This document shows, piece after piece, positions 2,723 to 27,988 of a stretch of DNA of 28,882 bases (the first letter of the stretch is position 1; each line of letters begins with the position of its first letter). The notes under the pieces were generated by a model that was not told the DNA's origin, did not search any database, and saw only the letters and a program-made list of their open reading frames with translations. The DNA lies in NCBI GenBank assembly GCA_964625645.1, contig CAZVDW010000614.1, forward strand, positions 1-28,882, given 5' to 3'. This DNA is from an uncultured Rhodospirillaceae bacterium. GTDB taxonomy: Bacteria; Pseudomonadota; Alphaproteobacteria; UBA7887. A program made the translations under genes and the position numbers.

Positions 2723-4207
2723 TTACCAGCCGCCTTCGGCGCGGCGGTCATGCCTTTCTTCGACCCCGAGGTCGAAAACCAGAAGCTTGCGCTCGGTGAA
2801 CGTTTCCAGGAACCATTGCGACAGCTCGCGCCCGACCCCGCTGTTTCCGGCGCCGCCGAAGGGCGCCAGCTGATCCCAATAGTTACTGGTCTCGTTGATG
2901 TTGACGGAGCCATGCGGCAGGGCCTCTCCGACGCGCCAAGCGGTTGCCAGATCCCTGGTCCACAACGAGGCAATGAGGCCGAGGTCGCTTGAGTTGGCGA
3001 TCTCTATGGCTTCATCCGCCGAATTCACCTTGATGATCGGAGCGACCGGGCCGAAGGTTTCTTCCTGGGCGATCACCATGTCGGTGGTCACCCCGGTCAG
3101 CACCGTCGCCGGATAATAGAGCCCCTCCTCGGGCCCGGTTTGTTCGATCACCGCCCCCTTGGCCAACGCATCATTCACATGCTCGACGACGCGCCGCAAA
3201 GTCGTCTCGTTGCAAAGCGGCCCCATCTCGGTGTCTTCCGCGGCGGGATCGCCGATTTTCAGCTGCTTGGTCCGGGCTTTGAATTTTTCGACGAATTCAT
3301 CGTAGATATCGGCATGAACCAGAAGCCGTTCGGCCGAGGTGCACACCTGTCCGGTGTAATAGAAACACCCGTTCATGGCACCATCGACCGCGGCATCGAT
3401 ATCGGCATCGGCAAGGATGATGAAAGGACCGTCGCCACCGAGCTCCAACAGGTGCGGCCGGAGCGCCGCCTTGGCGGCGATCGTGCGCCCGGTCGCGGTC
3501 GATCCGGTGAAGAAGATGCCATTCACGTCAGTGTGCTCGACAAGCGCGGCCCCGGCTTCGCCTTGTCCCTGAACGACGTTGATAACGCCTTCGGGGAGCC
3601 CGGCTTCGATGAACAGGTCGGCCAGCATGGCGCAGGACACGGCGGCATATTCCGATGGCTTCCAGACCGCGGTATTGCCGGCGGCGACAATATGGGCCAG
3701 GGCGATCGACGAGATGTCGGTGGGGAAATTGTAAGGTGTGATCGCCGCGACAACGCCAAGCGGACGATGGCTGAGCACCAGGCGCTTATTGGTGGTTTGC
3801 TCCTGGGTGGACGGGAAAGACAGGCCGCGATGGCGCAACACCTCCTCGGCGGCCTTGCCCCAGGACGGGGCGGCATACTCGAACACTTCCTCACGCGCAT
3901 CGGTGATCGTTTTGGCGATCTCCGCGGTAATCATCTGGGCGATCGGTTCCGCCTTTTCCAGAAAAAGGCCATGAATTCGCCGCATGATCTTCGCTCGCTC
4001 GATGACCGGCATGGCGGCCCAACCAGGATGAGCGGCCTTCGCCGAGGCAACGGCCAGATCGATATCGGCGGTGGAGCACTTGCCGACATTATGCAAGAGT
4101 CCACCCGAATGCGGGGATCGAACCTCGAACGTTCCCGCCGAGCCGTCCACCCACTTGCCATCGATCAATGCTGCCTGGATCGGGGGCTCTGCTCCATCCT
4201 TCGGCAT
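2723..4207 (-). CDS. NAD(P)+-dependent aldehyde dehydrogenase
   Basis: ITPYNFP, WKPSE, FTGS, catalytic Glu in LELGG, catalytic Cys in GQVCTS, EETFGP. AGAGGA SD before ATG 4207 (TTG 4213 is an alternative start). Confidence 0.93.
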   Translation of the reverse strand: MPKDGAEPPIQAALIDGKWVDGSAGTFEVRSPHSGGLLHNVGKCSTADIDLAVASAKAAHPGWAAMPVIERAKIMRRIHGLFLEKAEPIAQMITAEIAKTITDAREEVFEYAAPSWGKAAEEVLRHRGLSFPSTQEQTTNKRLVLSHRPLGVVAAITPYNFPTDISSIALAHIVAAGNTAVWKPSEYAAVSCAMLADLFIEAGLPEGVINVVQGQGEAGAALVEHTDVNGIFFTGSTATGRTIAAKAALRPHLLELGGDGPFIILADADIDAAVDGAMNGCFYYTGQVCTSAERLLVHADIYDEFVEKFKARTKQLKIGDPAAEDTEMGPLCNETTLRRVVEHVNDALAKGAVIEQTGPEEGLYYPATVLTGVTTDMVIAQEETFGPVAPIIKVNSADEAIEIANSSDLGLIASLWTRDLATAWRVGEALPHGSVNINETSNYWDQLAPFGGAGNSGVGRELSQWFLETFTERKLLVFDLGVEERHDRRAEGGW

Positions 4208-4276
4208 GTTCAAAATCCTCTCTGATTGTGTCTTTTTGTCAGCGCGCCCGTCGCGCCCAGACAGCGTTCTTGTCCA

Positions 4277-4975
4277 TCATATCGACGGACCGCCCGACCC
4301 GGTAGGCCTTTGCGGGCGCTCGCCGATACAGCCAATGTGGCGGTCGCCGCGGCAAGCCGGTTTCCGACGGTTCACGGTCTTCTCAATAGCATCTTCGTAT
4401 TCCGCTTCGGACCCGAAGACGTTGATCGAAATTCCCCGCCGCCTTGGCTGGCGAGATTGCTGAGGAACCGGAACCATGAACGAGCTCGCCGCCGGCAGCC
4501 GGTGGAGCCCTGCCTCGAGCCGGGAGACCATACGGCCGAGATCGGCGGCCAGGGCCTCGGGCAACGGCAGCGCGCCGACACCGCCATCCGGCTTCGGCCG
4601 CTTGCGCGCCACATGTCCCGCCACGATATTGGTGCCGGGGATGGCGTGCATGTCCTTGTAATTCGTCGGCAGGGCGCGCCCGAGGGCGTTGAAGGCATTG
4701 CCGCTGTTCGCCAGGGTGCCGGTGATGCGCAGATTGGCCTTGCTCTCGAAGCCGGCGATGGCGGCCGACAGCGAGTCGATATCGCGCGTGCTGTTCCTGC
4801 CGTCGATCGGCCCCGGCCACAGCGGCCGCCCGTTCGATCCCTTGATCTGCTTCAGTGCCGCCTGCACCACTGCCACGTCCTCGATCTTGTTCGGACCCCG
4901 TCTGCCAAGCGCAGCGTATCTTCTGGAAGGCGATCCGTTCGCTATCGGGTTCATGGGCATGATCTGGAACGGCAA
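4277..4975 (-). pseudogene. Truncated paralogue of the N-terminal peptidoglycan-binding-like module of the 5489-7447 protein, fused to unrelated 3' sequence
   Basis: 4538-4891 aligns without gaps to 7055-7408: 105/118 aa identical by hand count, with a 43-bp perfect block at 4675-4717 = 7192-7234. Similarity is lost after about 4490. Start codon uncertain and no clear SD. Confidence 0.7.
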
Positions 4976-5075
4976 AGCAGGAGCTTGGGCTTAAGCATCA
5001 TGTCTTACGCACGGTTGCTCTTAGAATTATCGACGCGCCCGCGCAAATCCACTCCTTTGGCAATGCTTGCACCGA

Positions 5076-5492
5076 TCAAAATCCCTCAAACTCGCCCCAT
5101 CCTCGGTAAATCTCGATGAGCTTTCCGTCTCGGAAGAATATCTTGAAGGTGAGGTATCGCTCACCATCCGGGTGAAAGTACCACAAATCCGCGTCCATCA
5201 AGAAGCCTTCCGCATTCACGTCGTCCAAAGAGAAACTTGATGGCGCTCCCGGGATGAAATTCCCGACAATGGAAATTTGCCTGTCGGAATAATGTCGTTG
5301 GAGGTGTTCAAAGGATTCTTTCTTCGTTGCCCCAACAACAAAACCGTACGCCGAACCTTCGGTGAAGGTATCGTGCCCGACGAAATAGTCCACGTAGATC
5401 ATGGCCGCAAGGAAGGCGACGCCCAACAGGATGATGAGCGCCGCCAGCAAACGCCCGATCCATTTCCATGCTGTCGGCGTGGCGCGCGTCAT
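5076..5492 (-). CDS. 138-aa membrane-anchored hypothetical protein; candidate immunity protein
   Basis: ATG at 5492 overlaps the upstream TGA (ATGA, 5489-5492). N-terminal TM helix WIGRLLAALIILLGVAFLAAMIYV, then a soluble domain ending LTFKIFFRDGKLIEIY. AT-richer than its flanks. Confidence 0.7.
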   Translation of the reverse strand: MTRATPTAWKWIGRLLAALIILLGVAFLAAMIYVDYFVGHDTFTEGSAYGFVVGATKKESFEHLQRHYSDRQISIVGNFIPGAPSSFSLDDVNAEGFLMDADLWYFHPDGERYLTFKIFFRDGKLIEIYRGWGEFEGF

Positions 5493-7447
5493 GGATACTG
5501 GTCGCCGAAATTGATGAGGTCCCAATTGCCGGCACCAAGATAGCCGACAATGCCGGGACTTTCGGGCAGCGGAACTTCTCCGCGTGTATTGGCTTGGTTG
5601 GCGATCGCCTGCGCCGCGGAATTGCTGTTGGCAACGAGGTCGCTTACCACCAACAGGGCATATGCCTGATCCATAACGAGATTCTCGGCAAGCCAGCGCA
5701 CTTCCGTTGCCTCGGCATAGATTGGTGATACCTCCGCCGGCAATGGCCATTTTTTGTTTGCATTGCCCGCCTCTGCCAGGCTCTCCCAGAACGCCACGTC
5801 GTCGCGATGTGTGGTCTCTGACCAGTCATCTTTGAATTCATCGTCAACTCGGCCCAAGAGTTTTTGTGGAATTTCGATACGCGTTCCCTTCAACATGTAG
5901 AGGGTTGATTCGAGGCGTCGCAAGACCGTCCCGGTGCGGGCATAGGAGTAAACGCTGGCTTCGGGATCGCCGATGTATCGCGCACCGGCAACAATGAAGA
6001 GATGCCCGCCGATGTATTCGCCTGCCGGAAAGCCCAGTGGCCTGCCGACGAGAAACGATGCCGTATCGTAGAGTGCGAAAACGTCGTTGTTCACATGCTC
6101 GATGTCACCCACAGCGGCCCGCGGCAGTCGCAGCACCAGGCGCCCCGGCGGCGCGTCCCGATCGAGCGCGAGCGGCGGATATTCGGCAAGGATATCGACC
6201 AAGGCATCGCGGGTCGGCGTCGGCGTTTCGAGCGCCGGCAGCGCGTTGCCAGATGCATCGAGGAATGCGCCATGTCCGAGGCTCATTTCGATCTTGATAT
6301 CGTTGAACACCTCACGCGGCATGGCACGCAGCGTCAGCGCGAGGCCGAAGCGCTGCTCGACCGTGGCGGCAAGCCTGGTCAGGGGCACTCGCAAATCCTC
6401 GGGCACTTGCGCGAGCGGAACCGCCGCCGGCCCGACCTGCCGATCGATATAGGCCAATGGCATGCCGCGCACTCCGCGCAGCCCCTTGAGCTCGCTCGGC
6501 AGCAGCGCCGACAGCGCCTTTACGCTGGCATCGCCGGGTTTGACGGTGCCTGTCGCATCGAGGCCGGCAGCGGCTTGGAAGGCGGACAAAGCCGCGTTGA
6601 GATCGTTGCTTGCCCTGCCATCGACCTTGCCCTCCCAGAACGGATCAGAGGCGCCCGGCGTGGTGATATTGGCCAGCGCCGCCTGCAAGGCCGCCACGTC
6701 ATGGATGGCATTGCCGCCGCCTTTGCCGACCGAGCCCGTGAACACGGGCCAGGCGTTGGAGCCGCCGGCCAGACGCGCGGCAGGGAAGGACTGCGTATCC
6801 GTCGAGACCAACGTCAACTGGGCGCCCTGCATCTGCGAGAGCTTGAAACGCTGCGAACCGCCGACGGCGGTATCAACGAGGCGCTGGATCACCTGCGGCA
6901 CAGGCGCGGTCTTGCCGGGGATGCGGCCCTGGGGGTCGAGGAAGCGCAGGCCGAGATCGACCGTGACCTTGTCGTGGCCGTTGGCATCGGCGCCGTCCGC
7001 GCGCACCGTCGGCAGATAGTTGAGCGCTTTCTCCAGGCGGCGCACCAGAGCCAGCAGGTCGGCGGCCAGGGCCTCGGGCAATGCCAGCTCGCTAACCCCG
7101 CCATCGGGCTTGGGCCGTTTGCGCGCGACGTGCCCGGCGACGATATTGGTGCCGGGAACCCCGTGCATGTCCTTGTAGTTGGTCGGCAAGCCGCGCCCGA
7201 GGGCGTTGAAGGCATTGCCGCTGTTCGCCAGGGTCCCCGTGAGGCGCAAATTGGCCTTGCTCTCGAAGCCGGCGATGGCGGCCGACAGCGAGTCGATGTC
7301 GCGCGTGCCGGTCTTGCCGTCGATCGGCCCCGGCCACAACGGCCGGCCGTTCCTGCCCCTGATCTGCTTCAGTGCCGCCTGCACCAGTGCCACATCCTCG
7401 ATCTTGTTGCTGCTCATTTCGCCGACCGGCCTGGTCATCATAAACAT
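5489..7447 (-). CDS. 652-aa protein with two peptidoglycan-binding-like repeats and a C-terminal putative permuted papain-like hydrolase domain; candidate toxin/effector
   Basis: Repeats RPVGEMSSNKIEDVALVQAAL...DG...AIAGFE...TG and GSVGKGGGNAIHDVAALQAAL...VDG...ALSAFQ...TG match the SVG..N..DV..VQ..L...DG...AI..FQ pattern of PG-binding domains. The C-terminus has GHLFIV and YALLVVSDLVANSNS. AAAGG SD before ATG 7447. Confidence 0.72.
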   Translation of the reverse strand: MFMMTRPVGEMSSNKIEDVALVQAALKQIRGRNGRPLWPGPIDGKTGTRDIDSLSAAIAGFESKANLRLTGTLANSGNAFNALGRGLPTNYKDMHGVPGTNIVAGHVARKRPKPDGGVSELALPEALAADLLALVRRLEKALNYLPTVRADGADANGHDKVTVDLGLRFLDPQGRIPGKTAPVPQVIQRLVDTAVGGSQRFKLSQMQGAQLTLVSTDTQSFPAARLAGGSNAWPVFTGSVGKGGGNAIHDVAALQAALANITTPGASDPFWEGKVDGRASNDLNAALSAFQAAAGLDATGTVKPGDASVKALSALLPSELKGLRGVRGMPLAYIDRQVGPAAVPLAQVPEDLRVPLTRLAATVEQRFGLALTLRAMPREVFNDIKIEMSLGHGAFLDASGNALPALETPTPTRDALVDILAEYPPLALDRDAPPGRLVLRLPRAAVGDIEHVNNDVFALYDTASFLVGRPLGFPAGEYIGGHLFIVAGARYIGDPEASVYSYARTGTVLRRLESTLYMLKGTRIEIPQKLLGRVDDEFKDDWSETTHRDDVAFWESLAEAGNANKKWPLPAEVSPIYAEATEVRWLAENLVMDQAYALLVVSDLVANSNSAAQAIANQANTRGEVPLPESPGIVGYLGAGNWDLINFGDQYP

Positions 7448-7494
7448 TGTTGCGCCTTTCAATTGGGGATGGCAACAAAAATTTCTTTGCACCG

Positions 7495-7564
7495 TCCCAA
7501 TATGGGGATTTACGTCATCGCATCAACCCATCGGGGGCGAGTTTTGGGAGAAAACTCCCAATAT
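7495..7564. promoter_or_regulatory. Putative operator palindromes in the AT-rich divergent promoter region
   Basis: TCCCAATATGGGGA (7495-7508, one mispair), perfect TTGGGAG-AAAA-CTCCCAA (7544-7561), and TCCCAATAT directly repeated at 7495 and 7556. Confidence 0.35.
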
Positions 7565-7760
7565 ACTGAAATCAAGCCAGAAAATAACGCGAGATGTCTT
7601 CGATACTGCTACATAATGTCTCCATTATCTGTCACCAGAAAGTGACATACGGCGAATCGGTGCCGCCGGCGCGGCCGGGAATGGCGGATTGACGGCGGCG
7701 TGCGGGCTGCGGAGAATGGCCGCTTCGGCGGGAGTGGCGGTCAAAGGACGGGAGCTTGGC

Positions 7761-8621
7761 ATGGTGAGTTTCGCGGCGCTAGACGGGCCGTTCGGCGTGG
7801 CGGTGCATGGGGTGGACGTGGCGGCCGGCGTCGATGACGAGACTTTCCGCGCCCTGGCGCAAGCGCTTTACGACAAGCGCGTCATCGTCATCAAGAGCCA
7901 GGACTGCGGCAAGGACGCCTATCTCGCCTTCGGGCGCCAATGGGGGGCGCCGATCCCGCATGTGGTCGACACCGCGCGCATGCCCGATTTTCCCGAGATG
8001 ATGGCGCTCGGCAACACCACGGAATGGGCCAAGGACGATATCAGCCGCAACGCCGCCGCCTTCTGGCACACCGACCAGTCCTACGATGCCGATCCGGCGA
8101 CCTCGACCATGCTCTATGCGCGCAATATGCCGGATGTCGGCGGCCAGACCCGCGTGGCCGACATGAAGGCGGCCTATGACGATCTCGACGAGGAGACGCG
8201 CGCCCGCCTCGACGCTCTCGTCGCCAGGCATTTCTACGGCGCCACCTCGGGCCAGGACGGCGAGCTCGGCATCGCCCGGGTCACCGCGCGCCAGGCCGCG
8301 GAAGTGCCGCCGGTGCCGCACCGTCTGGTGCGCCGGCATACGGTGACGGGCGAGAAGGCGCTCTACGCGGTGGCGGGCACGGCTTACGGCATCGAGGGCA
8401 TGGCGAACGCCGCGGCGCTGGCGCTGATCGCCGAGCTGAAAGCCCATGTCACCCAGGGGAAATATGTCTACGAGCACGCCTACGAGGTCGGCGACATCGC
8501 CATGTGGGACACCCAGATGACCCTGCATGCCGCGACCCCCATCGGCCTGCCCGACGGCCCCGGCAGCGAGCGCCTAGTCTGGCGCATCAGCGTGCGCGGC
8601 AAGCCGCCGATATTCCAGTAG
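7761..8621 (+). CDS. TauD/TfdA family Fe(II)/alpha-ketoglutarate-dependent dioxygenase
   Basis: HxD facial triad in FWHTDQSY, distal His in WDTQMTLHAA, Arg in RLVWRISV, and H.LVRRH..TGEKALY. Start taken at MVSFAAL (7761). Confidence 0.9.
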   Translation: MVSFAALDGPFGVAVHGVDVAAGVDDETFRALAQALYDKRVIVIKSQDCGKDAYLAFGRQWGAPIPHVVDTARMPDFPEMMALGNTTEWAKDDISRNAAAFWHTDQSYDADPATSTMLYARNMPDVGGQTRVADMKAAYDDLDEETRARLDALVARHFYGATSGQDGELGIARVTARQAAEVPPVPHRLVRRHTVTGEKALYAVAGTAYGIEGMANAAALALIAELKAHVTQGKYVYEHAYEVGDIAMWDTQMTLHAATPIGLPDGPGSERLVWRISVRGKPPIFQ

Positions 8622-8652: not shown

Positions 8653-10289
<1,637 letters not shown>

Positions 10290-10293
<4 letters not shown>

Positions 10294-10394
10294 TTCCGGC
10301 CGGGCACCTTGTGATTGGCCCAGGCCAGCGTCAGGCCGAAAGCGCTGAAGGCGGCCAGGATAAGGATCAGATAAAGAGTCTCGGCGGAGTCCAT
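10290..10394 (-). CDS. 34-aa single-TM small protein
   Basis: MDSAETLYLILILAAFSAFGLTLAWANHKVPGRN*. AGGGAGG SD about 6 nt before the ATG. The TAG overlaps the ligase TAA convergently. Below the ORF-track length cutoff. Confidence 0.7.
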
Positions 10395-10451
10395 GTTTTG
10401 CCCTCCCTGTTTCCCATCGCCAAGAGACTGCACGGGCCAGGTTTTCGCTCC

Positions 10452-10465
10452 TTAACCTGGATTAA
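10452..10465. promoter_or_regulatory. CRP/FNR-family-like box TTAAC-CTGG-ATTAA
   Basis: One mismatch to the CprK dehalobox TTAAT-N4-ATTAA and related to FNR TTGAT-N4-ATCAA. Lies between the divergent small-protein gene and rdhA. Confidence 0.4.
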
Positions 10466-10495
10466 TGTCGTACACTCGCCGCGGGGTGAGTGCCG

Positions 10496-12685
10496 GTGAA
10501 GATTTTCTCGAACAAAGAGCGCGCGTTTCATCTCGGGCCGTTTCCGCTCGAGCGCCTGGCGCGCGCGCCGTTGCCGGCAGCCGAGGTCGAGGGCGTCCGC
10601 CCGCCACGCCCGACACCGCCCGCCGCGCCCTCGGGCCTGGCCGCGGTGCTGACCCGCTACCTTGACCTTTTCTTGCAGTTCAGCGATGGCCTGGCGGCCG
10701 GCGAGCGCGCGCCCATCGCCCTCGACGCGGTCGAAATCGCCAACGATCTCAAGGCCGGCGGATACTTCCTCGACGCCGGCATGATGGCCTGCTGCTCCCT
10801 GCCCACCTCCGCCTGGTACGCCAACGACGCCGACGGCAACGCCTTCGCCCCCTACCACGCCAATGCCGTGGTGGTGATGGTCGAGCATGGCCGGCCCGTC
10901 GAGGCGGGCAACCTCGCCCACGACTGGACGGCGGGCGCGGATGCCGCCGCCGGCGCCTTGCGGGCGCTCGAGATCGCCAACGTCCTGGCCGGCTATATCC
11001 GCAATCTCGGCTGGTCGGCGCGGGCGCATTCGCGCCACGGCGGCGACGTCAACCAGGATGTTCTGGTGGTCCGCTCGGGCCTCGGCGAGCGCCACGGCGG
11101 CAAGCTGGTCAACCCGTTCATCGGCAACCGCTTCGCCACCGCCGTGGTGACCACCGAGATGCCGCTGGCGCCCGACGCGCCCCTGGCGGCGGCACGGCGC
11201 GGGGATCGCGGGCTCGGCTTCTGGCTTGGCCGCGGCGGCTCCTACCCCGAGCTGGCGCGGCGCGCCGAGCGCCGCCGCCCGGCCCATATGAGCCGCTATG
11301 CCATGGAGCGCATCCGCAGCGTTGCCGCGCCCACCACCCTGATCCTCGACGACGAGGTGCCGCGCGTCTCGAAACGCGCCGCCTTCTTCGAGCGTGCGCT
11401 GCGCGGCGACCTCGGCGACAAGGCACGGGCCGAGCGCACCCGCTTCGCCGTCAAGCACCCCTTCACCTTTGCCATGCGAAGCATGCAGGGCGCCATGGTG
11501 CCGCTGCAGGACGGCGAGGCCGCCGAAACCCCACAAGGCGGCGATGCCGAGGCCAACGCCAGGGCGGTCAAGGCACTCTGTTACTGGATGGGCACCGACC
11601 TCGCCGGTATCTGCCGCATCCCCGACTATGCCTGGTTTTCCCATGGCGAGGACGGCACACCGATCACCCCCCACCACACCTACGCCATCGTGCTGCTGAT
11701 CGACCAGGGCTACGAGACCATGGAAGGCGCCAGCGGCGACGACTGGATCAGCGGCACGCAATCGATGCGTGGCTATATGCGCGGTGCCGAAGTGACGGGC
11801 GTGATCGCCGAGCACCTGCGCCGACTCGGCCACTCGGCGCGGTCGCAAACCAATATCGATAGCGAGGTCTTGCATATACCCCTGATCCTCGGTGCCGGCC
11901 TCGGCGAGCTCAGCCGCATCGGCGAGCTGGTGCTCAATCCCTTTGTCGGCCCGCGCTTCAAATCGGCCGTGATCACCACAGACATGCCGCTGGCCGTCGA
12001 TCGGCCGATCGACTTCGGCCTGCAGGACATGTGCGCAAAGTGCAACAAATGTGCCCGCGAATGCCCCTGCTCCGCCATCCCGGCGCGACCCAAGATCATG
12101 TTCAACGGCTATGAGACCTGGAAGCCCGATGTCGAGCGCTGCGCCCGCTACCGCTTGACCAATCCCAAGGGCGCTGCCTGCGGCCGCTGCATGAAGACCT
12201 GCCCCTATAACCACGAGGGCCTGCTCGGCCACCGCCTGATGCTGTGGCTGGCGATCCACGTGCCGGCCAGCCGGCGCTGGATCGCACGCCTCGACGACAA
12301 GGTCGGCAATGGCCGGCGCAACCTCGTCAAGAAGTGGTGGCGCGATCTCGAATGGTCGCGCGACGGCGTTGCGGTGGAGCCCCGCGCGGGCACCAACCAG
12401 CGCGACATCGAGCCCGACAAGGCGATGGATCCGGACAAACAGAAGATCGCCTATTATCCCGCCAGCGCCATGCCTGTTCCCGACGACACCAACGCCCAAC
12501 CCGTCATGCGCAAGCAGGCCCTGGCCGCGGCGGCGCTGATCGAGACGCCCGCTGAGGCTCGCGCGCGCGTCGCCCGCGGCGAGGCGGCGCCGGCCCATTA
12601 CCGCCCGACACCGCCCGGCGGTCAGCGCGGCCCCGAGGTGGCCGTGGGGCGCTCGGGCCTGGCCGAGCCGGAAGCCGGCGAATGA
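10496..12685 (+). CDS. rdhA: Catabolic (non-respiratory) cobalamin-dependent reductive dehalogenase, NpRdhA type
   Basis: Close recalled similarity to Nitratireductor pacificus RdhA: MKIFSNKERAFHLGPFPLERLAR; LIDQGYETMEGASGDDWISGTQSMRGYMRGAE; NPFVGPRFKS; Fe-S motifs CAKCNKCARECPC and CGRCMKTCP; duplicated vestigial N-terminal B12 domain; no Tat signal. GTG 10496 has a GGGGTGAG SD (GTG 10490 is an alternative start). Confidence 0.92.
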   Translation: MKIFSNKERAFHLGPFPLERLARAPLPAAEVEGVRPPRPTPPAAPSGLAAVLTRYLDLFLQFSDGLAAGERAPIALDAVEIANDLKAGGYFLDAGMMACCSLPTSAWYANDADGNAFAPYHANAVVVMVEHGRPVEAGNLAHDWTAGADAAAGALRALEIANVLAGYIRNLGWSARAHSRHGGDVNQDVLVVRSGLGERHGGKLVNPFIGNRFATAVVTTEMPLAPDAPLAAARRGDRGLGFWLGRGGSYPELARRAERRRPAHMSRYAMERIRSVAAPTTLILDDEVPRVSKRAAFFERALRGDLGDKARAERTRFAVKHPFTFAMRSMQGAMVPLQDGEAAETPQGGDAEANARAVKALCYWMGTDLAGICRIPDYAWFSHGEDGTPITPHHTYAIVLLIDQGYETMEGASGDDWISGTQSMRGYMRGAEVTGVIAEHLRRLGHSARSQTNIDSEVLHIPLILGAGLGELSRIGELVLNPFVGPRFKSAVITTDMPLAVDRPIDFGLQDMCAKCNKCARECPCSAIPARPKIMFNGYETWKPDVERCARYRLTNPKGAACGRCMKTCPYNHEGLLGHRLMLWLAIHVPASRRWIARLDDKVGNGRRNLVKKWWRDLEWSRDGVAVEPRAGTNQRDIEPDKAMDPDKQKIAYYPASAMPVPDDTNAQPVMRKQALAAAALIETPAEARARVARGEAAPAHYRPTPPGGQRGPEVAVGRSGLAEPEAGE

Positions 12686-15600
12686 GCGCCTTGCGGGACT
12701 GGCTCGAAGCGCAAGGCCTCGGCGACTATGCCGCGGCTTTCGAGGCCGAGCAGCTCGACCTCGAGCACCTGGCGGACCTCGACGAGGCCGACCTCAAGAG
12801 CCTCGGTTTGCCCATGGGCCCGCGCAAGACCTTGCGCAAGGCGATCGAGGCGGGAGTTGCCGCGCCGGCGGCCTCAGGCGCCCGCGATGCCGAGCGCCGG
12901 CAGATCACGGTGATGTTCTGCGATCTCGTCGGCTCCACCGCATTGTCCGAAGCCCTCGATCCGGAGGAGCTGCGGGAGATCATGCGGGCCTATCAAAAGG
13001 CGGCCGGCAGGGTGATCGAGCGCTATGGCGGCCACGTCGCACAATATCTCGGCGACGGCCTGATGACCTATTTCGGCTGGCCGAGAGCCCATGAGGACGA
13101 TGCCGAGCGGGCCGTGCGCGCCAGCCTCGACATCGTCGTCGCCGTGCACGAGGTGAAATCCCAGAGGCCGCTCGCCGTGCGCATCGGCATTGCCACCGGC
13201 CCCGTGGTGGTCGGCGAGACCGGCGCGGGCGACGCCTCGGTACCCAATGCGGCGGTCGGCGAGACGCCCAACCTGGCGGCCCGCCTGCAAACGCTTGCCG
13301 GACCGGATGAAACTGTCATCAGCCCGTCGACGCGGCGGCTCGTCGGCGACACCTTCGCGCTCGATGCGCTCGGCGACCAGGCCCTCAAGGGCATCGCCGA
13401 GACCGTATCCGCCTGGCGTGTCGGCGGGCTTGCCACCGGGCAAAGCCGCTTCGAGGCATCGCGCGGCTCGCGCCTGACGCCCTTCGTGGGACGTGAGGCG
13501 GAGGCCTCGCTGATCCTCGACAAGTGGGGAATCGCCAAGGACGGCGAAGGCCAGGTGGTCCTGCTGTCGGGCGAGCCTGGGATCGGCAAGAGCCGCATCA
13601 CCGAGGAGCTGATCCGCGCCACGGCGCAAGACGATCCGATCCGCCTGCGCTACCAGTGCTCGCCCTTTCATACCAATTCGGTGCTCTACCCGGTGATCGA
13701 GCAGTTCGTGCATGCCGCCGGCTTCGAGCGCGATGACAGCATCGAGGCGCGCCTCGACAAGATGGAGGTGTTGCTGAGGGAAAGCGGCGATGTCGAGGAA
13801 ACCGCGCCCTTTGTCGCTGCCATGCTGTCGCTCGACAGCGACCGCTACGCAGCGATCGATATGTCCGCCGAGCGCCAGGCGCAGCACCTGCGCGAGCTGC
13901 TTGCCGCACAGATCGGCGGCCTCGCCCGGCAACGCCCGGTGCTGTTCATCATCGAGGACGCACACTGGATCGACCACAGCTCGGAGGAAATGCTCGACCT
14001 CGCAATTAGCCATGCGCGCGAGCATTCGCTGCTGATGGTCATCACCTTCCGGCCCGAATACCAGCCGCGCTGGCTTGGCGGCGGCGACGTGACGGCGCTT
14101 TCGCTGACTCGCCTCGGGCGCCGCCAGGCGGCGAAGATGGTGGCGCGCGTAACCGGCGGCAAGGCCCTGCCCGATGCCGTGCTCGACCAGATCGTGGCGG
14201 AAACCGACGGCGTGCCGCTATTCGTCGAGGAGTTGACCAAGACGGTGCTGGAATCGGGCCAGCTGCGCGAGCACGAAGACCGTTGGGAGCTCGGCGGCTC
14301 GCTGCCCGAGCTTGCCATCCCCGCGACCTTGCAGGATTCGCTGATGGCGCGGCTCGACCGCCTGGCGCCGGTCAAGGAAATCGCCCAGATCGGGGCTTGC
14401 ATCGGCCGTATCTTCCCGCATCGCCTGCTCGAGGCGGTCTCGCCCGTCAAGGGCAACGAGCTTGGCGATGCCTTGGCGCAATTGGTGGAAAGCGAGCTTG
14501 TCTTCCGCCGTGGCCACGGGGCCGACGCGGTCTATACCTTCAAACACGCCCTGGTGCAGGACGCGGCGCACGGCTCGCTGCTGATCAGCCGCCGACGCGA
14601 GTTCCATGGCCGCATCGCGCAGGAGCTGGAACAGTCCGGCGACGCCGAGCCGGAATTGCTCGCCTACCATTACGGTGCCGCCGACAATATCGCCCGCGCC
14701 GTGCCCTTGTGGCATCAGGCGGGTGCGGCAGCAGCCGCACGCGCCGCCAATACCGAGGCGGTTGCACATTTCCGCGCCGGCCGCGACGCCGCGCAAGCCT
14801 GGACCGACGATGCCGAGCGCATTCGCTGGCAGGTCAATATCGGCGTCGATCTGGCCATGACCCTGCGCACTTTCGATCAATTCGACGAAGCCCTGGAGGT
14901 GCTCGACTGGACCGAAGGCATAGCTGGCGAACACGAGGATCCCGCCGAGCGCGGCCGTGTGCACTATTCGCGCGGCAACGTCTATTTCGCACTCGGCAAG
15001 GTCGACGGCCTGCGGGAAGAGCATGAGAAGGCGCTGAAATATGCCCGCGAAGGGGGCTCGGCCGAAATGGAAGCGCGCGCCTATAGCGGCCTCGGCGACG
15101 CCGCCTATGCCGCCGGCCGCATGGCCACGGGGCATGACTACTTCAAGCGTTGCGTCGCGCTTTGCGAGCGCGAGGGCTTCGACGAGATCCAGGCCAGCAA
15201 TCTGCACATGGTCGGCTGGACCGCGCTTTACCTCAACCGCCCCGACCAGGCCGAGGCCAGCGCGCTGGCCTGCGTCGAGTTGTCGCGGCGGCTCAACGCC
15301 CACCGCCCGCACATTCTCGCGGAATCGCTGGCCGGCTATGTCGCCGTCGAGCGCGGGCGCAAAGACGAAAGCCGGGCCGCGCTGGATCGTGCCCTGGAGC
15401 TGAGCCAGCGCGCCGGCGCTTCCAGTTTCGATGCCCAGGCCGCCGCCATGGTGGCGCGTCTGGCCTGGTACGCGGGCGATGCCGCCACCGTGCGCGACTA
15501 TATCGAGCGCGCGATGAGCGGAACGCGGGCCACGGCCATGACCTTTTTCGGCCCCTTCTGCCTCGGCGTCGCGGCCCTGGTCACGGATGATCGAGACAAG

Positions 15601-15933
15601 GCCGATGCCCTGCTGGCCGAGGCCGAGGCGGCGCTCGATGCCGGCTGCGTCAGCCACAACTATCTCTGGTTCATGCGCGAGGCGGTCGAGATCTACGCCC
15701 GGCGCGGCGACTGGGATCAGGTCGAGCGCCAGGCCGACCGCCTCGAAGCCTATACCCGTGCCGAGCCCCTGCCCTGGTGCGAGCTGCAAATCGCCCGCGC
15801 CCGCGCGCTCGCCGCCCACGCCCGCAGCCCCAGCGACGCCACCCGCGACGCGCTTGCCGCCATCCGCGACCGCTGCGTCGCCGCCGAGCTGGCCACGGCA
15901 CTGCCGGCGATAGACCGGGTGTTGGGGGGTTAA
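12682..15933 (+). CDS. SAM + class III nucleotide cyclase + AAA/STAND ATPase + TPR protein (copy 1)
   Basis: SAM LRDWLEAQGLGDYAAAFEAEQLD; cyclase FCDLVGST, YLGDG, GETPNLAARLQ; Walker A GEPGIGKS; Walker B IIEDAHWID; helical C-terminal half. ATGA overlap with rdhA. Confidence 0.92.
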   Translation: MSALRDWLEAQGLGDYAAAFEAEQLDLEHLADLDEADLKSLGLPMGPRKTLRKAIEAGVAAPAASGARDAERRQITVMFCDLVGSTALSEALDPEELREIMRAYQKAAGRVIERYGGHVAQYLGDGLMTYFGWPRAHEDDAERAVRASLDIVVAVHEVKSQRPLAVRIGIATGPVVVGETGAGDASVPNAAVGETPNLAARLQTLAGPDETVISPSTRRLVGDTFALDALGDQALKGIAETVSAWRVGGLATGQSRFEASRGSRLTPFVGREAEASLILDKWGIAKDGEGQVVLLSGEPGIGKSRITEELIRATAQDDPIRLRYQCSPFHTNSVLYPVIEQFVHAAGFERDDSIEARLDKMEVLLRESGDVEETAPFVAAMLSLDSDRYAAIDMSAERQAQHLRELLAAQIGGLARQRPVLFIIEDAHWIDHSSEEMLDLAISHAREHSLLMVITFRPEYQPRWLGGGDVTALSLTRLGRRQAAKMVARVTGGKALPDAVLDQIVAETDGVPLFVEELTKTVLESGQLREHEDRWELGGSLPELAIPATLQDSLMARLDRLAPVKEIAQIGACIGRIFPHRLLEAVSPVKGNELGDALAQLVESELVFRRGHGADAVYTFKHALVQDAAHGSLLISRRREFHGRIAQELEQSGDAEPELLAYHYGAADNIARAVPLWHQAGAAAAARAANTEAVAHFRAGRDAAQAWTDDAERIRWQVNIGVDLAMTLRTFDQFDEALEVLDWTEGIAGEHEDPAERGRVHYSRGNVYFALGKVDGLREEHEKALKYAREGGSAEMEARAYSGLGDAAYAAGRMATGHDYFKRCVALCEREGFDEIQASNLHMVGWTALYLNRPDQAEASALACVELSRRLNAHRPHILAESLAGYVAVERGRKDESRAALDRALELSQRAGASSFDAQAAAMVARLAWYAGDAATVRDYIERAMSGTRATAMTFFGPFCLGVAALVTDDRDKADALLAEAEAALDAGCVSHNYLWFMREAVEIYARRGDWDQVERQADRLEAYTRAEPLPWCELQIARARALAAHARSPSDATRDALAAIRDRCVAAELATALPAIDRVLGG

Positions 15934-24655: not shown

Positions 24656-27600
24656 CTATTTCAGCTCGGTCAGCAGCGCCTCGGCGTCCTTTAGGTCTGG
24701 CAGCTCGAAGCCCTCAGTGAACCAGCTGTAGGCTGGCTCCAGAATGTCACGCGCCTCTTCGGTCCTGCCCTGGTCATGCCATACCCTCGCCATATCGCGC
24801 GCCCCACGCAGCTCAAGCAAGTGATTGTCCTGACCGCGAGCGATCTCGATCGCCGAAACGAATTGGCGCTCTGCCTCTGCGGCGTCTCCCTGGGCTGCCG
24901 CCAACAGGCCACGAGCGTGAGGCACGCCGGGCTGCCACAAATACATACCGGAGCTCTCTACGTCGGCTTCCGCGTCGTCGAGTAGGCTCTTGGTGCGATG
25001 AAAGTCGCCGACAGCCAGCGTCGCTCTCGCCACCTCTGTCAGCAATAATGGTGCCTGGCCGCTACCACCCGCCATCTCGAAAACGGCAATCGCTTCCTCG
25101 AATAAGGGCAAAGCTGCCTCTGCCTCCCCGTTGACTCTGCGTATGATTGCGCGACCAACCTGTGCCCAGGCGGAGTAAAATGGCAGGTATTGCTCCTCGC
25201 CAATGCGCAGGCATCGATCCGCGAAGTCGTCCGCCCTTGCTGCGTCACCTATGATCGCCAAGGCCAAGCCGGCCATCGAATACGCAAGAGTTAATGTGAA
25301 GGGATGGTTCGTTGCCAGCGCCCACTTGACGGCCTCTTCCGCATTGGCGCTCGCCGTTCCGAAACAACCATGGTAGGCCTCGCCAAAATTCGGAAAAGTA
25401 ACCGCGCCTACGCCGATGTCCTGCCCGTACATAGCGATAAGGTGGCCATGCTTTGCAAAATCATAAGTTTCTATGGCACGGCGCGCGATAAGGCGTCCGC
25501 GTGCCACATCGCCATGAGTTACGAGGGCGGCACCCACGTGCTGATCGGCGACCAAATGCAAAGACTCGTCGTTTGATTTGTCCGCAAGGGAAGACATTTT
25601 TTCATACGCATTTAGAGCGGCTCGAATGTTCCCCCTGACCCAGTGATAGGTTCCGATGCCGAAGAGAACAGGGAAAAGCGCGAGTGATTCGGCATTTTCA
25701 TTACACAATGCCTCTGCGCGCAGGAATGCCTCGCCGGCTTCCGGTGCCCCGTAGCCGCGCGTCGCGACGTGAACCAAGCCCTCCAGAGAGCGCAGTCGCG
25801 CTTCGAGCATGGATCGGTCGCTGTTATCGGGGATCGAGCCCATCAGGCTCAGGCCATTTTGGATATGCCGCAGCGCTTCCGCGTAGGCGGTCTGGCCAAA
25901 GGCCTTTTGCCCCGCCGCCAGCCAATAGGGGATCGCCTGATCAGGCTGAGCCGCCTCGGTGTAGTGGTGGGCAAGCAGGTCCGGCTGCTGCTCCACTCTT
26001 CCGGGGATTGCCTTCAGCGCCTCGGCGATGCGGCTGTGCAATTGCTGCCGGCGGCTCTTCAACAGACTCTCATGAGCCGCATCCTGTACGAGCGCATGCT
26101 TGAAGGTGTAGGTGATGTCGGGAGGCGAGCCGCTACGGAACACAAGTTCGCTATTCACCAGTTGCTGCAGCGCGTCCTGAAGCTCGTTGTCACGCAGATC
26201 GGCGACGGCCGCGAGCAGCGCGTAGGAAAACTCGCGGCCGATACAGGCACCGACTTGCGCGATTTCCTTCACCGGGCTGAGCCGGTCGAGGCGCGCCATC
26301 AGCGAGTCCTGCAGAGTGGAAGGGACTGCGAGGGCTCCGCGCCCGGCACTGGTGCGGTAGGTGCCCTGCTCGTCGAGCGCCACGACGCCACTTTCAATTA
26401 CCGTCCTGGTCAATTCCTCGACGAACAGCGGCACGCCGTCGGTCTTGGCAACGACCTGATCAAGAATCTCATCCGGCAGTGGCTTGCCGCCGGTGACCCG
26501 CGCCACCATCTCCGCCGACTGTCGCCGGCCGAGCCTCGACAGGTTCACTTGGGTGACGTGGCCCAGACCCTGTGGCCAAGGCGGGGTATATTCCGGGCGG
26601 AAGGTCACCAGCATCAGCACGCGCGCAGAGGCGATCTGGGGGACGATCAGGTCCAGCGTCTCCTGGGTCGTCGGGTCGATCCAGTGCGCGTCCTCGAACA
26701 GCACCAGCACCGGCCCTTCGGCGGCGGGCGCCGTCAGCTGGCCGGCGATCGCCTTGAGCGTCTCCTCCTTCTGCTTCTGCGGGCTCATGGCGAGCGGTGG
26801 ATAGCGCTCCGAGGCATCAACCTCAAGCAGCCCGGCGATGAGCGCCGGCGTATCCCCTTCGCGTCCGACCAGTGCCTCGATCCGGTCGAGCCGGGTGGTG
26901 GTGGCGTCGTCAGCGCTGATGCCGGCGGCGCGAGTGAGCTGATCGATGATCGGGTGCAGTACCGAGTTGGTGTGATAGGGCGAGCACTGGTAGCGGAGCC
27001 GAGTATGGGGCTCGGCCTCAATGCGCGATTGCAGCTCCTGCATGATGCGGCTCTTGCCGACGCCGGGCTCGCTCGAGAGCAGCACCACCTGGCCTTCCCC
27101 GTCGCAGGAGAGATGCCACTTGTCGAGCAGCAGAGTCAGCTCGGCCCCGCGGCCGACGAACGGGGTGAGATGCCCGCCGCGGGTCGCCTCGAAGCGGCTC
27201 TTGGCGGCGATAAGGCCAGCGACCCGCCACGCACGCACCGGCTCGACGATGCCCTTGAGATGATGCTCGCCCATGTCAGTGAGAGCAAAGGCGCCGCCGA
27301 TCAGCCGCCGGGTCGCTGGCGCGATGACGATCTCGTCGGGCCCGGCCAGGCCCTGGACTCGGGCGGCGAGGTTCGGCGTTTCGCCGACCGCGAGCTTCGG
27401 CACGCTCGCATCGCCCGCGCCGGTCTCGCCCACCACCACCGGCCCTGAGGCGATGCCGATGCGCACCTTAAGCGGCTCGGCCACGCCTCGCACTAACTTC
27501 ACCGTTTCGGTAATCTCGAGACCAGCACGCACGGCCCGCTCGGCATCGTCCTCATGCGCCGTCGGCCAGCCGAAATAGGTCATCAACCCGTCGCCGAGAT

Positions 27601-27988
27601 ATTGCGCGACATGGCCTTCATAGCGCTCGATCACTTGGCCAGCCGCCTGCTGATAGGCCTGCATCAGGCTCCGCAGGTCCTCGGGGTCCAGCGCCTCGGA
27701 AAGCGCGGTCGAGCCCACGAGATCGCAAAACATTACAGTGATCTGGCGACGTTCAGCTGCCGGTGGCTTGACGAGCCCATGATCGTGGGCCTCAACGGGG
27801 CCGGCATCGCCCAACTCCGCAACTGCGCGCAACACTCGCACGCGGTGGCCCATGACTGATACTCCAAGTTTCTCAAGGGCCGTATCGTCCAGGTCACGGA
27901 CTAGGTCGAGGTCGATCTCGTTTTCCTCGAATGCCTCAGCGTATTGCTCCAGATCGAGCCCGTTCAGCCACTCGCGAATGTTCGACAT
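24656..27988 (-). CDS. SAM + class III nucleotide cyclase + AAA/STAND ATPase + TPR protein (copy 2)
   Basis: Same architecture as 12682-15933: FCDLVGST, YLGDG, GETPNLAARVQ, SEPGVGKS, FEDAHWID, and a C-terminal ARDILEPAYSWFTEGFELPDLKDAEALL motif. GGGAGGG SD. Confidence 0.92.
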   Translation of the reverse strand: MSNIREWLNGLDLEQYAEAFEENEIDLDLVRDLDDTALEKLGVSVMGHRVRVLRAVAELGDAGPVEAHDHGLVKPPAAERRQITVMFCDLVGSTALSEALDPEDLRSLMQAYQQAAGQVIERYEGHVAQYLGDGLMTYFGWPTAHEDDAERAVRAGLEITETVKLVRGVAEPLKVRIGIASGPVVVGETGAGDASVPKLAVGETPNLAARVQGLAGPDEIVIAPATRRLIGGAFALTDMGEHHLKGIVEPVRAWRVAGLIAAKSRFEATRGGHLTPFVGRGAELTLLLDKWHLSCDGEGQVVLLSSEPGVGKSRIMQELQSRIEAEPHTRLRYQCSPYHTNSVLHPIIDQLTRAAGISADDATTTRLDRIEALVGREGDTPALIAGLLEVDASERYPPLAMSPQKQKEETLKAIAGQLTAPAAEGPVLVLFEDAHWIDPTTQETLDLIVPQIASARVLMLVTFRPEYTPPWPQGLGHVTQVNLSRLGRRQSAEMVARVTGGKPLPDEILDQVVAKTDGVPLFVEELTRTVIESGVVALDEQGTYRTSAGRGALAVPSTLQDSLMARLDRLSPVKEIAQVGACIGREFSYALLAAVADLRDNELQDALQQLVNSELVFRSGSPPDITYTFKHALVQDAAHESLLKSRRQQLHSRIAEALKAIPGRVEQQPDLLAHHYTEAAQPDQAIPYWLAAGQKAFGQTAYAEALRHIQNGLSLMGSIPDNSDRSMLEARLRSLEGLVHVATRGYGAPEAGEAFLRAEALCNENAESLALFPVLFGIGTYHWVRGNIRAALNAYEKMSSLADKSNDESLHLVADQHVGAALVTHGDVARGRLIARRAIETYDFAKHGHLIAMYGQDIGVGAVTFPNFGEAYHGCFGTASANAEEAVKWALATNHPFTLTLAYSMAGLALAIIGDAARADDFADRCLRIGEEQYLPFYSAWAQVGRAIIRRVNGEAEAALPLFEEAIAVFEMAGGSGQAPLLLTEVARATLAVGDFHRTKSLLDDAEADVESSGMYLWQPGVPHARGLLAAAQGDAAEAERQFVSAIEIARGQDNHLLELRGARDMARVWHDQGRTEEARDILEPAYSWFTEGFELPDLKDAEALLTELK

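Follow-up and report, generated by a model that had tools for sequence, protein, structure and literature searches.

The window analyzed here, a 28,882-nucleotide stretch of DNA from an uncultured Rhodospirillaceae-like soil/water alphaproteobacterium, carries at positions 4277 to 7447 a locus that is in all likelihood a polymorphic toxin-immunity system, composed of a modular antibacterial toxin (P0001) with an exchanged tip, probably of a Ser-type permuted NlpC/P60 fold, and its cognate immunity protein (P0087). The toxin-immunity pair is real and well supported. Its principle is known, and three component families are unnamed: the toxin domain, which also occurs on Rhs, Tc-like, and lectin carriers, the immunity family, and the peptidoglycan-binding (PGB) carrier. 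The sequence-only reading of this stretch had presented the pair as undescribed; that holds for the family and not for the principle, because a permuted NlpC/P60 periplasmic effector has already been published (Tox-Act1/TseH, PMC12994826). All relevant genes lie on the minus strand, with the following features.

7448 to 7688, minus strand: AT-rich intergenic stretch upstream of the toxin gene, with a single sigma-70-like match; presumably the promoter region of the toxin-immunity operon
5489 to 7447, minus strand: toxin gene P0001 (652 amino acids [aa], from translation), double PGB carrier plus C-terminal toxin domain
7193 to 7447, minus strand: carrier module 1, PG_binding_1-like three-helix domain, aa 1 to 85 (internal repeat, weak structure matches)
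6788 to 7084, minus strand: carrier module 1, small alpha/beta (ferredoxin-like) domain, aa 122 to 220
6497 to 6748, minus strand: carrier module 2, PG_binding_1 domain, aa 234 to 317
6113 to 6430, minus strand: carrier module 2, alpha/beta domain, aa 340 to 445, where conservation among carrier homologues ends
5492 to 6073, minus strand: C-terminal toxin domain of low GC, aa 459 to 652 (homologues, conserved columns, AlphaFold2 model, GC)
6002 to 6004, 5966 to 5968, and 5624 to 5626, minus strand: predicted triad His482, Asp494, and Ser608, the last in an N607-S608-N609 motif
5076 to 5492, minus strand: immunity gene P0087 (138 aa), predicted N-terminal transmembrane (TM) anchor at aa ~16 to 34 plus a periplasmic domain of ~100 aa
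4277 to 4960, minus strand: truncated paralogue of the carrier N-terminus (227 aa), of which aa ~18 to 156 match toxin aa 8 to 146 and a tail of ~70 aa is unrelated

Two tandem modules, each a PG_binding_1 domain plus a small alpha/beta domain, form the conserved carrier (aa 1 to 445), and in the mechanism that we propose a horizontally exchanged cassette of lower GC would bring both the toxin domain (aa ~459 to 652) and the ATGA-coupled cognate immunity gene. Overall GC and third-position GC (GC3) are 0.678 and 0.84 in the carrier (6113 to 7447), 0.567 and 0.63 in the tip (5492 to 6073), and 0.528 and 0.655 in the small gene. The switch is sharp and falls at the carrier/tip junction (aa ~445 to 455, nucleotides ~6080 to 6113), in agreement with the earlier remark that the C-terminus becomes AT-richer near position 6100. 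The toxin gene starts with the ATG at 7447 behind an AAAGG Shine-Dalgarno (SD)-like site, its start Met is common to the homologues, and its stop codon (TGA, 5489 to 5491) overlaps the start of the 138-aa open reading frame (ORF) in the ATGA at 5489 to 5492.

Carrier modules and exchanged toxin tips

The carrier contains an internal repeat, in which aa 3 to 184 align with aa 235 to 411 at 30% identity (E = 2e-10), giving a unit of ~185 to 230 aa. Two repeats of ~140 aa, both opening with an SVG motif, had been proposed from the letters; the repeat stands, but the unit is longer and the first copy begins PVGEMSSNKIEDVALVQAAL, with PVG instead of SVG, the second beginning SVGKGGGNAIHDVAALQAAL. 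Pfam PG_binding_1 (PF01471) matches the second copy only (aa 250 to 302, E = 2.2e-8), and this hidden Markov model (HMM) match together with a three-helix PGB fold places the carrier in PG_binding_1. Module 1 has no Pfam match; its PGB-like character shows in the internal alignment and in weak structural similarity to the proMMP-2 PGB domain and PGB proteins of the AlphaFold database (AFDB). An AlphaFold model of aa 1 to 452 (pLDDT 76.8) shows two modules, each a three-helix PGB domain followed by a small alpha/beta domain. Pfam, NCBIfam, PHROGs, and PADLOC recognized nothing beyond PG_binding_1 in the toxin, its small partner, or the truncated copy.

The carrier is conserved and its C-termini are not. 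Nine database homologues share aa 1 to 445 (alignment A1), with 52 to 67% identity across the shared part, and P0002 alone has the tip as well; the rest are truncated or end in a hydrophobic, Gly-rich segment of ~220 aa unrelated to it. Carrier homologues overall have at least three unrelated C-terminal classes, besides the M23 and alpha/beta-hydrolase tips found on single-module carriers. P0011 has the same architecture as P0001, with 35% identity over the full length. In the metagenome-assembled genome (MAG) of the window, six or more additional carrier matches are spread over five other contigs. The GTDB order of the window comprises 23 species, and two of its genera have the carrier, that of the window and one more; a sample of 400 Alphaproteobacteria yielded just two more carrier-bearing genomes, one of them 100% complete in 10 contigs. 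The best relative is labeled "uncultured Rhodospirillaceae bacterium."

The tip, in turn, is found on other carriers. An exhaustive phmmer search with aa 430 to 652 against 1.8 billion representatives retrieved 77 proteins, mostly short fragments or stand-alone domains; in about a dozen, proteins of 1058 to 2264 aa, the domain is the extreme C-terminus (the last ~160 to 190 aa). According to Pfam, these carriers include Rhs proteins with DUF6531, RHS_repeat, and an RHS core (P0043 and P0019), an SpvB/TcdB_toxin_midN/RHS protein (P0066), and Laminin_G_3 proteins (P0038 and P0029), besides the PGB carrier of P0001 and P0011. A DPxG[LR] junction lies ~20 aa ahead of the conserved His in ~24 relatives and, in the Rhs members, is of the type that closes the Rhs core. 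The C-terminal positions in Rhs, TcdB/SpvB, and Laminin_G proteins and this junction indicate that the domain behaves as a polymorphic-toxin tip; it is a bona fide polymorphic-toxin module. In P0001 the tip begins ASFLVGRPL at aa ~462, where GC falls, and has a lineage-specific insert of 25 aa (aa ~506 to 530). The tip sequences can serve as seeds for annotating dozens of "hypothetical" Rhs tips.

Like Rhs, CdiA, and MafB (Zhang et al. 2012, PMC3482391), the system combines a conserved N-terminus, a variable C-terminal toxin, a downstream immunity gene, a compositional break, and tips shared between carriers. Unlike them, its carrier has no YD/Rhs or filamentous hemagglutinin repeats, no PAAR, VgrG, TPS, or WXG element, no signal peptide, and no releasing peptidase. 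PGB1 is named in that polymorphic-toxin survey only as an accessory adhesion domain (PMC3482391).

Several other arrangements of the carrier were encountered. A second toxin class (class B) consists of the hydrophobic Gly-rich C-terminus of ~220 aa on the carrier (P0004 and P0006 to P0010), at loci L004 (G000:C720) and L005 (G000:C850) and, in a related MAG, L036 and L037; together with its downstream partner, it resembles a tip that disrupts membranes and an immunity family of integral membrane proteins. Single-module carriers have just one PGB plus alpha/beta unit, joined to Peptidase_M23, an alpha/beta hydrolase/thioesterase-like domain, or an unrecognized C-terminus (L021, L031, L023, L008, and L032, on G013, G021, and G000 contigs). 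Proteins of ~278 aa made of a single PGB plus alpha/beta unit without a tip recur beside full-length toxin genes (P0002 and P0006 contigs, L018, L015, and L025), and these may be accessory partners rather than debris. In another alphaproteobacterial family, L088 (G496:C5) has an ORF at 682 to 2844 encoding a 720-aa double-PGB carrier that contains a helical region and, terminally, a glycine-zipper segment, GGVVGGKVGTLVGFAVCGPVCAIGGFFIGSALGG; it adjoins a transposase fragment, and its host genome lacks TssC.

Probable immunity families that follow the tips

The 138-aa protein P0087 has one strong hydrophobic helix at aa ~16 to 34 (Kyte-Doolittle mean over 19 residues, 2.78) with Arg/Lys ahead of it. 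Together with the ATGA overlap and the GC of 0.528, this bears out its first description as a low-GC, N-terminally anchored, translationally coupled product. Members of the same family (family A) follow the tip in four further independent loci, among them those of P0011, P0043, and P0012, and a fifth, that of P0018, gives a weak match. P0011 (L009) is followed by three tandem TM-anchored homologues of P0087 with 28 to 33% identity (E = 1e-13 to 2e-16), and the Rhs protein P0043 (L010) by a homologue with 33% identity (E = 1e-9) that, read from an SD-preceded TTG, opens MRQVVNRWVLVGIGVLMLG|C, a lipobox lipoprotein signal. P0012 is followed by a family-A member with an hmmsearch profile E value of 1e-27, and L041 is among the family-A loci. 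Behind P0018 (L042) lies a TM-anchored ORF, left unannotated, that shares the C-terminal motif and matches the family weakly (E = 0.0012). Behind P0002 lies an overlapping gene of 139 aa; the neighbors of P0002, P0004, and P0006 were characterized by size and Pfam only.

Other tips have other partners. Class-B tips are followed by a multi-TM family (L004, L005, L036, and L037, and a DUF1240-like neighbor of P0004) of 150 to 217 aa, often with a 4-nucleotide overlap, whose members end in a GY..C......R.AWVLD..DC motif. Each of the M23- and alpha/beta-hydrolase-tipped single-module carriers has yet another signal-peptide or TM protein downstream, and divergent tip subclades (P0021 and P0038) have multi-TM neighbors. 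Tip and downstream gene thus co-vary, the point that a collection of homologues had been proposed to test. The P0087 family is TM- or lipid-anchored, and it therefore faces the periplasm; all candidate immunity proteins are membrane or periplasmic proteins, which places the site of action at the cell envelope. The original idea of an envelope-targeting effector with a periplasm-facing immunity protein is strengthened by this anchoring and by the recurrence of the family behind the same tip on other carriers. In our model, the immunity protein would be anchored in the inner membrane with its domain of ~100 aa in the periplasm, where it would bind toxin that enters kin cells and block it.

Tandem or mixed immunity genes occur at L009 and L041 only and not at the window locus; in L041, an orphan copy of a class-B immunity gene lies downstream of a class-A pair. 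Two of the public gene calls deserve correction. At L010 (8281 to 8652), the called start lies inside the lipoprotein signal peptide, and the TTG at 8281 with a GGGAGG SD site fits better. At L042 (~3617 to 4006), the immunity ORF is uncalled and an antisense ORF of 142 aa is called instead.

Fold and predicted activity of the tip

The tip has no Pfam or NCBIfam match, a sequence-profile search of the PDB was blank, and a Pfam scan of 40 tip homologues gave noise-level matches only (one PPPDE, E = 0.033). Across 40 aligned members (A2), H482, D494, S501, T546, D550, W554, and N607-S608-N609 are invariant or nearly so. N-S-N is kept in 62 of the 63 relatives with a recognizable motif, the remaining one having N-C-N (P0067, NCNT). 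In the AlphaFold2 model of the tip (pLDDT 88.8, pTM 0.87), His482 lies on a beta-strand (27 to 35) and Ser608 at the N-terminus of a helix (154 to 165), the arrangement of permuted NlpC/P60 domains, in which a His on an N-terminal strand precedes a nucleophile at the start of a C-terminal helix. The Cys nucleophile of that group is replaced by Ser, and no family HMM or profile matches. The predicted triad would be His482/Asp494/Ser608, with Ser608 at the helix N-terminus within the N-S-N motif; Asp494 is 12 residues past His482, which we take to be the spacing of the second catalytic His in LRAT-family enzymes.

Structural comparisons point the same way. Foldseek against the PDB gave nothing (E of 1 or more), and the top matches among AFDB clusters were DUF4105/Lnb_N. 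The eight best VIA-align matches, one mitochondrial-complex chain aside, are all permuted or related papain-like enzymes (Aichivirus 2A H-NC, TseH as second-best, DeSI/PPPDE, PLAAT4, YiiX, CLN5, MARTX RID, and 3kw0), and ESM features pointed to DUF3750, IcsB_M, TseH, and Lnb_N. By ESM features and profile-profile alignment, DUF3750 (PF12570) is the nearest Pfam family. With crude alignments, an hhalign comparison of the tip with 15 aligned DUF3750 sequences gave a P value of 0.0067 (probability 5.7%, 109 columns), as compared to 0.011 for Lnb_N against TseH, a literature-related pair with equally crude alignments. It pairs sHnFIV with vHtWI and G-NSNSAA with GPNSNTF, thus aligning the His strand and the G-x-NSN-[ST] motif. 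Comparison with self-made Lnb_N and TseH alignments was negative, and the Pfam HMM of DUF3750 matched none of the 40 tip family members. DUF3750 proteins are stand-alone, ~250 to 290 aa long, and not known as toxin tips, whereas the domain here is C-terminal on carriers.

Because the structural scores, individually weak, agree, and the motif logic supports them, we read the tip as a probable new Ser-type clade of permuted NlpC/P60 (papain-like) toxins. The literature agrees with this assignment: DUF3750 has been listed as one of the papain-like families in which Ser replaces Cys (PMC10318531), and Tox-Act1, a type VI secretion system (T6SS) effector and periplasm-acting phospholipase, has a permuted NlpC/P60 core related to DUF4105 and TseH, depends on His43/Cys151, and is neutralized by a membrane protein (PMC12994826). 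We set the tip beside Tox-Act1 by this description and not by sequence. Tox-Act1/Imm-Act1 of Salmonella (PLoS Biol 2026, PMC12994826) and TseH of Vibrio cholerae (PDB 6v98) are the precedent for the tip as permuted NlpC/P60 periplasm-acting effectors, with clear differences. Their nucleophile position is Cys and that of the tip family is almost always Ser; TseH has no sequence similarity to the tip detectable by hhalign; Imm-Act1 has two TM helices, whereas the immunity protein here combines one TM helix with a soluble domain in the periplasm, or else is a lipoprotein; and no T6SS was found in the host genomes here. The tip would thus extend the lipid-targeting permuted NlpC/P60 effectors to a clade in which Ser replaces the catalytic Cys almost universally, a natural test of serine chemistry in papain-like folds.

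What does the tip act on? By analogy with the assayed permuted members (Tox-Act1, TseH, LRAT/PLAAT, and Lnb), an acyl-lipid or lipoprotein substrate is somewhat favored: working at the periplasmic face of a rival cell, the tip would most likely cleave or transfer the ester or amide bonds that hold fatty-acyl chains in membrane phospholipids or lipoproteins. A less likely option, though one to be taken seriously, is that the same pair has a tip that is a peptidoglycan amidase or endopeptidase, like Tse1/Tae or classical NlpC/P60 enzymes, which would cleave the peptide stems while the PGB carrier places it on the sacculus. The two peptidoglycan-binding domains of the carrier speak for it, as do the sibling carriers that bear an M23 peptidoglycan endopeptidase, the rank of TseH as second-best structural match, and, as a lead only, BamE/BLIP-like features of the immunity protein that are typical of periplasmic enzyme inhibitors. 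TseH, moreover, was reportedly first proposed as an endopeptidase. Weighing against a peptidoglycan substrate, the order of His before nucleophile marks the permuted group, whose assayed members act on acyl-lipid bonds, TseH itself having shown phospholipase activity (PMC12994826), and further sibling carriers end in an alpha/beta hydrolase or in membrane-active tips, which means that a peptidoglycan substrate does not follow from the carrier.

Delivery, alternative readings, and genomic context

The toxin lacks a signal peptide and TM segment; its first 60 aa contain no hydrophobic segment (Kyte-Doolittle maximum, 0.45), and Pfam identifies no trafficking domain in it. No secretion or phage genes lie in the window, whose remaining genes are metabolic or signaling genes. 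TssC of the T6SS is absent from all seven genomes searched (G000, G020, G021, G022, G013, G496, and G716), six of them carrier-bearing, the absence in G000 being limited by the incompleteness of that MAG. VgrG/Phage_GPD, VirB4, and phage sheath are absent from the five closest genomes (G000, G020, G021, G022, and G013). The initial statement that no signal peptide or secretion genes are seen and that the route of delivery is unknown therefore stands, now that markers of the T6SS, the type IV secretion system (T4SS), and contractile sheaths have been looked for and not found. Since the carrier is multicopy in genomes without these markers, how signal-less, periplasm-acting toxins are delivered becomes a testable question. 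Possible routes are lysis or bacteriocin-like release, vesicles, or an unrecognized exporter. A bolder proposal, which we put forward tentatively and hold to be rather unlikely as a whole, is that the double-PGB carrier represents a route for periplasm-acting polymorphic toxins in free-living alphaproteobacteria that is independent of the T6SS, the T4SS, and extracellular contractile injection systems (eCIS), for instance bacteriocin-like release followed by uptake or a so far unrecognized exporter, and that the tip is the first natural toxin family with a Ser nucleophile in a permuted NlpC/P60 fold.

Three known routes were considered and rejected: T6SS delivery after searches for TssC, VgrG, and Hcp, the sole Hcp-like match being a signal-peptide protein in an unrelated context; X-T4SS delivery, as there is no VirB4 and the C-termini are variable toxins and not XVIPCD; and eCIS or tailocin delivery, as there is neither a sheath nor a GPD spike. 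The Hcp-like match is a 164-aa Sec signal-peptide protein (L038, G000:C47, 267 to 761, plus strand) that passes the T6SS_HCP threshold narrowly (30.7 bits) and has a homologue in the congener G022; its ORF lies between a TPR gene and a symporter gene, with no other T6SS gene in the genome.

Several points weigh against a polymorphic toxin-immunity system with a Ser-type tip. No secretion signal, trafficking domain, or secretion system has been identified for the toxin, and intercellular delivery would follow solely from polymorphic-toxin logic and the Rhs context. The source genome is a fragmented MAG of 872 contigs, 87% complete with 6.4% contamination. The immunity family is small and was recovered by neighborhood only, word-indexed database searches with the immunity protein and with a five-sequence profile returned only the inputs, and the 139-aa neighbor of the closest homologue, P0002, is known by size and position only. 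To our knowledge, no natural toxin is known to use Ser as the catalytic nucleophile of a papain-like fold.

There are three further alternatives. It is improbable that the toxin is an ordinary cargo effector of a T6SS, or of another known contact-dependent system, whose apparatus genes are missing from incomplete assemblies. The lack of a signal peptide, a periplasmic immunity protein, and an orphan location among housekeeping genes are typical of such cargo, and the fragmentation of the window MAG and the weak Hcp-family matches in G000 and G022 fit as well; against this, among the genomes without TssC are a congener, 100% complete and with 11 carrier matches, and the 100%-complete, 10-contig genome of another family, the spike, VirB4, and sheath families are also absent from the five closest genomes, and the Hcp-like ORF encodes a Sec signal peptide and lies among unrelated genes.

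Still less probable is a role other than that of a weapon, such as a prophage-derived modular endolysin with a holin- or spanin-like partner or a housekeeping wall-remodeling enzyme with its regulator. An N-terminal PG_binding_1 domain followed by a C-terminal enzymatic domain without a signal peptide is the architecture of phiKZ gp144 and of the Burkholderia AP3 endolysin, a PHROG endolysin match reaches E = 0.0012, and a small membrane protein is coupled downstream. However, the PHROG and structure matches are confined to the PGB domain, no phage genes lie beside any of the loci, and there is no phage or defense family match apart from that domain. In contrast to phage endolysins, the PGB module here is duplicated and has an extra alpha/beta domain, the swappable tips are not lysozymes, and dedicated immunity genes accompany them; the same tip with the same small protein stands behind an Rhs core, and the tandem or mixed immunity genes (L009 and L041), the several paralogues per genome with swapped tips, and the GC break fit conflict systems. 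Equally remote is a catalytically dead papain-like tip (Cys to Ser) that acts by binding, or a decaying locus: Ser does stand where the canonical Cys would be, a truncated paralogue adjoins the toxin locus, and DUF3750 has been judged to have an unfavorable active-site charge for peptidase activity (PMC10318531), but the (near-)invariance of His, Asp, and N-S-N over 40 to 63 diverged sequences on many carriers points to selection on the active site, both ORFs are intact and coupled, and a dedicated immunity family is kept.

The truncated copy at 4277 to 4960 is separated from the 138-aa ORF by a spacer of 115 nucleotides and confirms the partial N-terminal copy that had been noticed downstream. 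It matches toxin aa 8 to 146 with 81% amino acid identity and 88.9% nucleotide identity over 351 nucleotides, with 22 synonymous versus 13 nonsynonymous codon changes; past the match the sequence is unrelated. By these counts it appears to have changed mainly synonymously, before or since its truncation. Among the polymorphic-toxin hallmarks invoked at first, the variable tip and the coupled immunity gene are present, but this remnant is an N-terminal carrier fragment and not a classical orphan cassette of a C-terminal toxin and its immunity gene, as in Rhs and CdiA loci. Similar carrier fragments and module-only paralogues of ~278 aa adjoin full genes in related MAGs, and truncated copies may be left over from cassette turnover or may be PGB-only proteins that serve some role themselves. 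At L036 in a related MAG (9123 to 10937, plus strand), an ORF for a Fer2/FAD/NAD-binding oxidoreductase shares its reading frame with 66 aa of carrier N-terminus (82% identity to the window toxin), probably a leftover next to a genuine gene.

The locus is flanked by an aldehyde dehydrogenase gene (2723 to 4213) and a TauD dioxygenase gene (7689 to 8621). GC is 0.465 at 7400 to 7599, in line with an AT-rich region upstream of the toxin gene, and a promoter-like site (7475 to 7446) is a match to consensus only. Elsewhere in the window, positions 12682 to 15933 (plus strand) and 24656 to 27988 (minus strand) encode paralogous proteins of ~1100 aa that combine SAM, class III nucleotide cyclase, AAA_16 STAND ATPase, and TPR domains.

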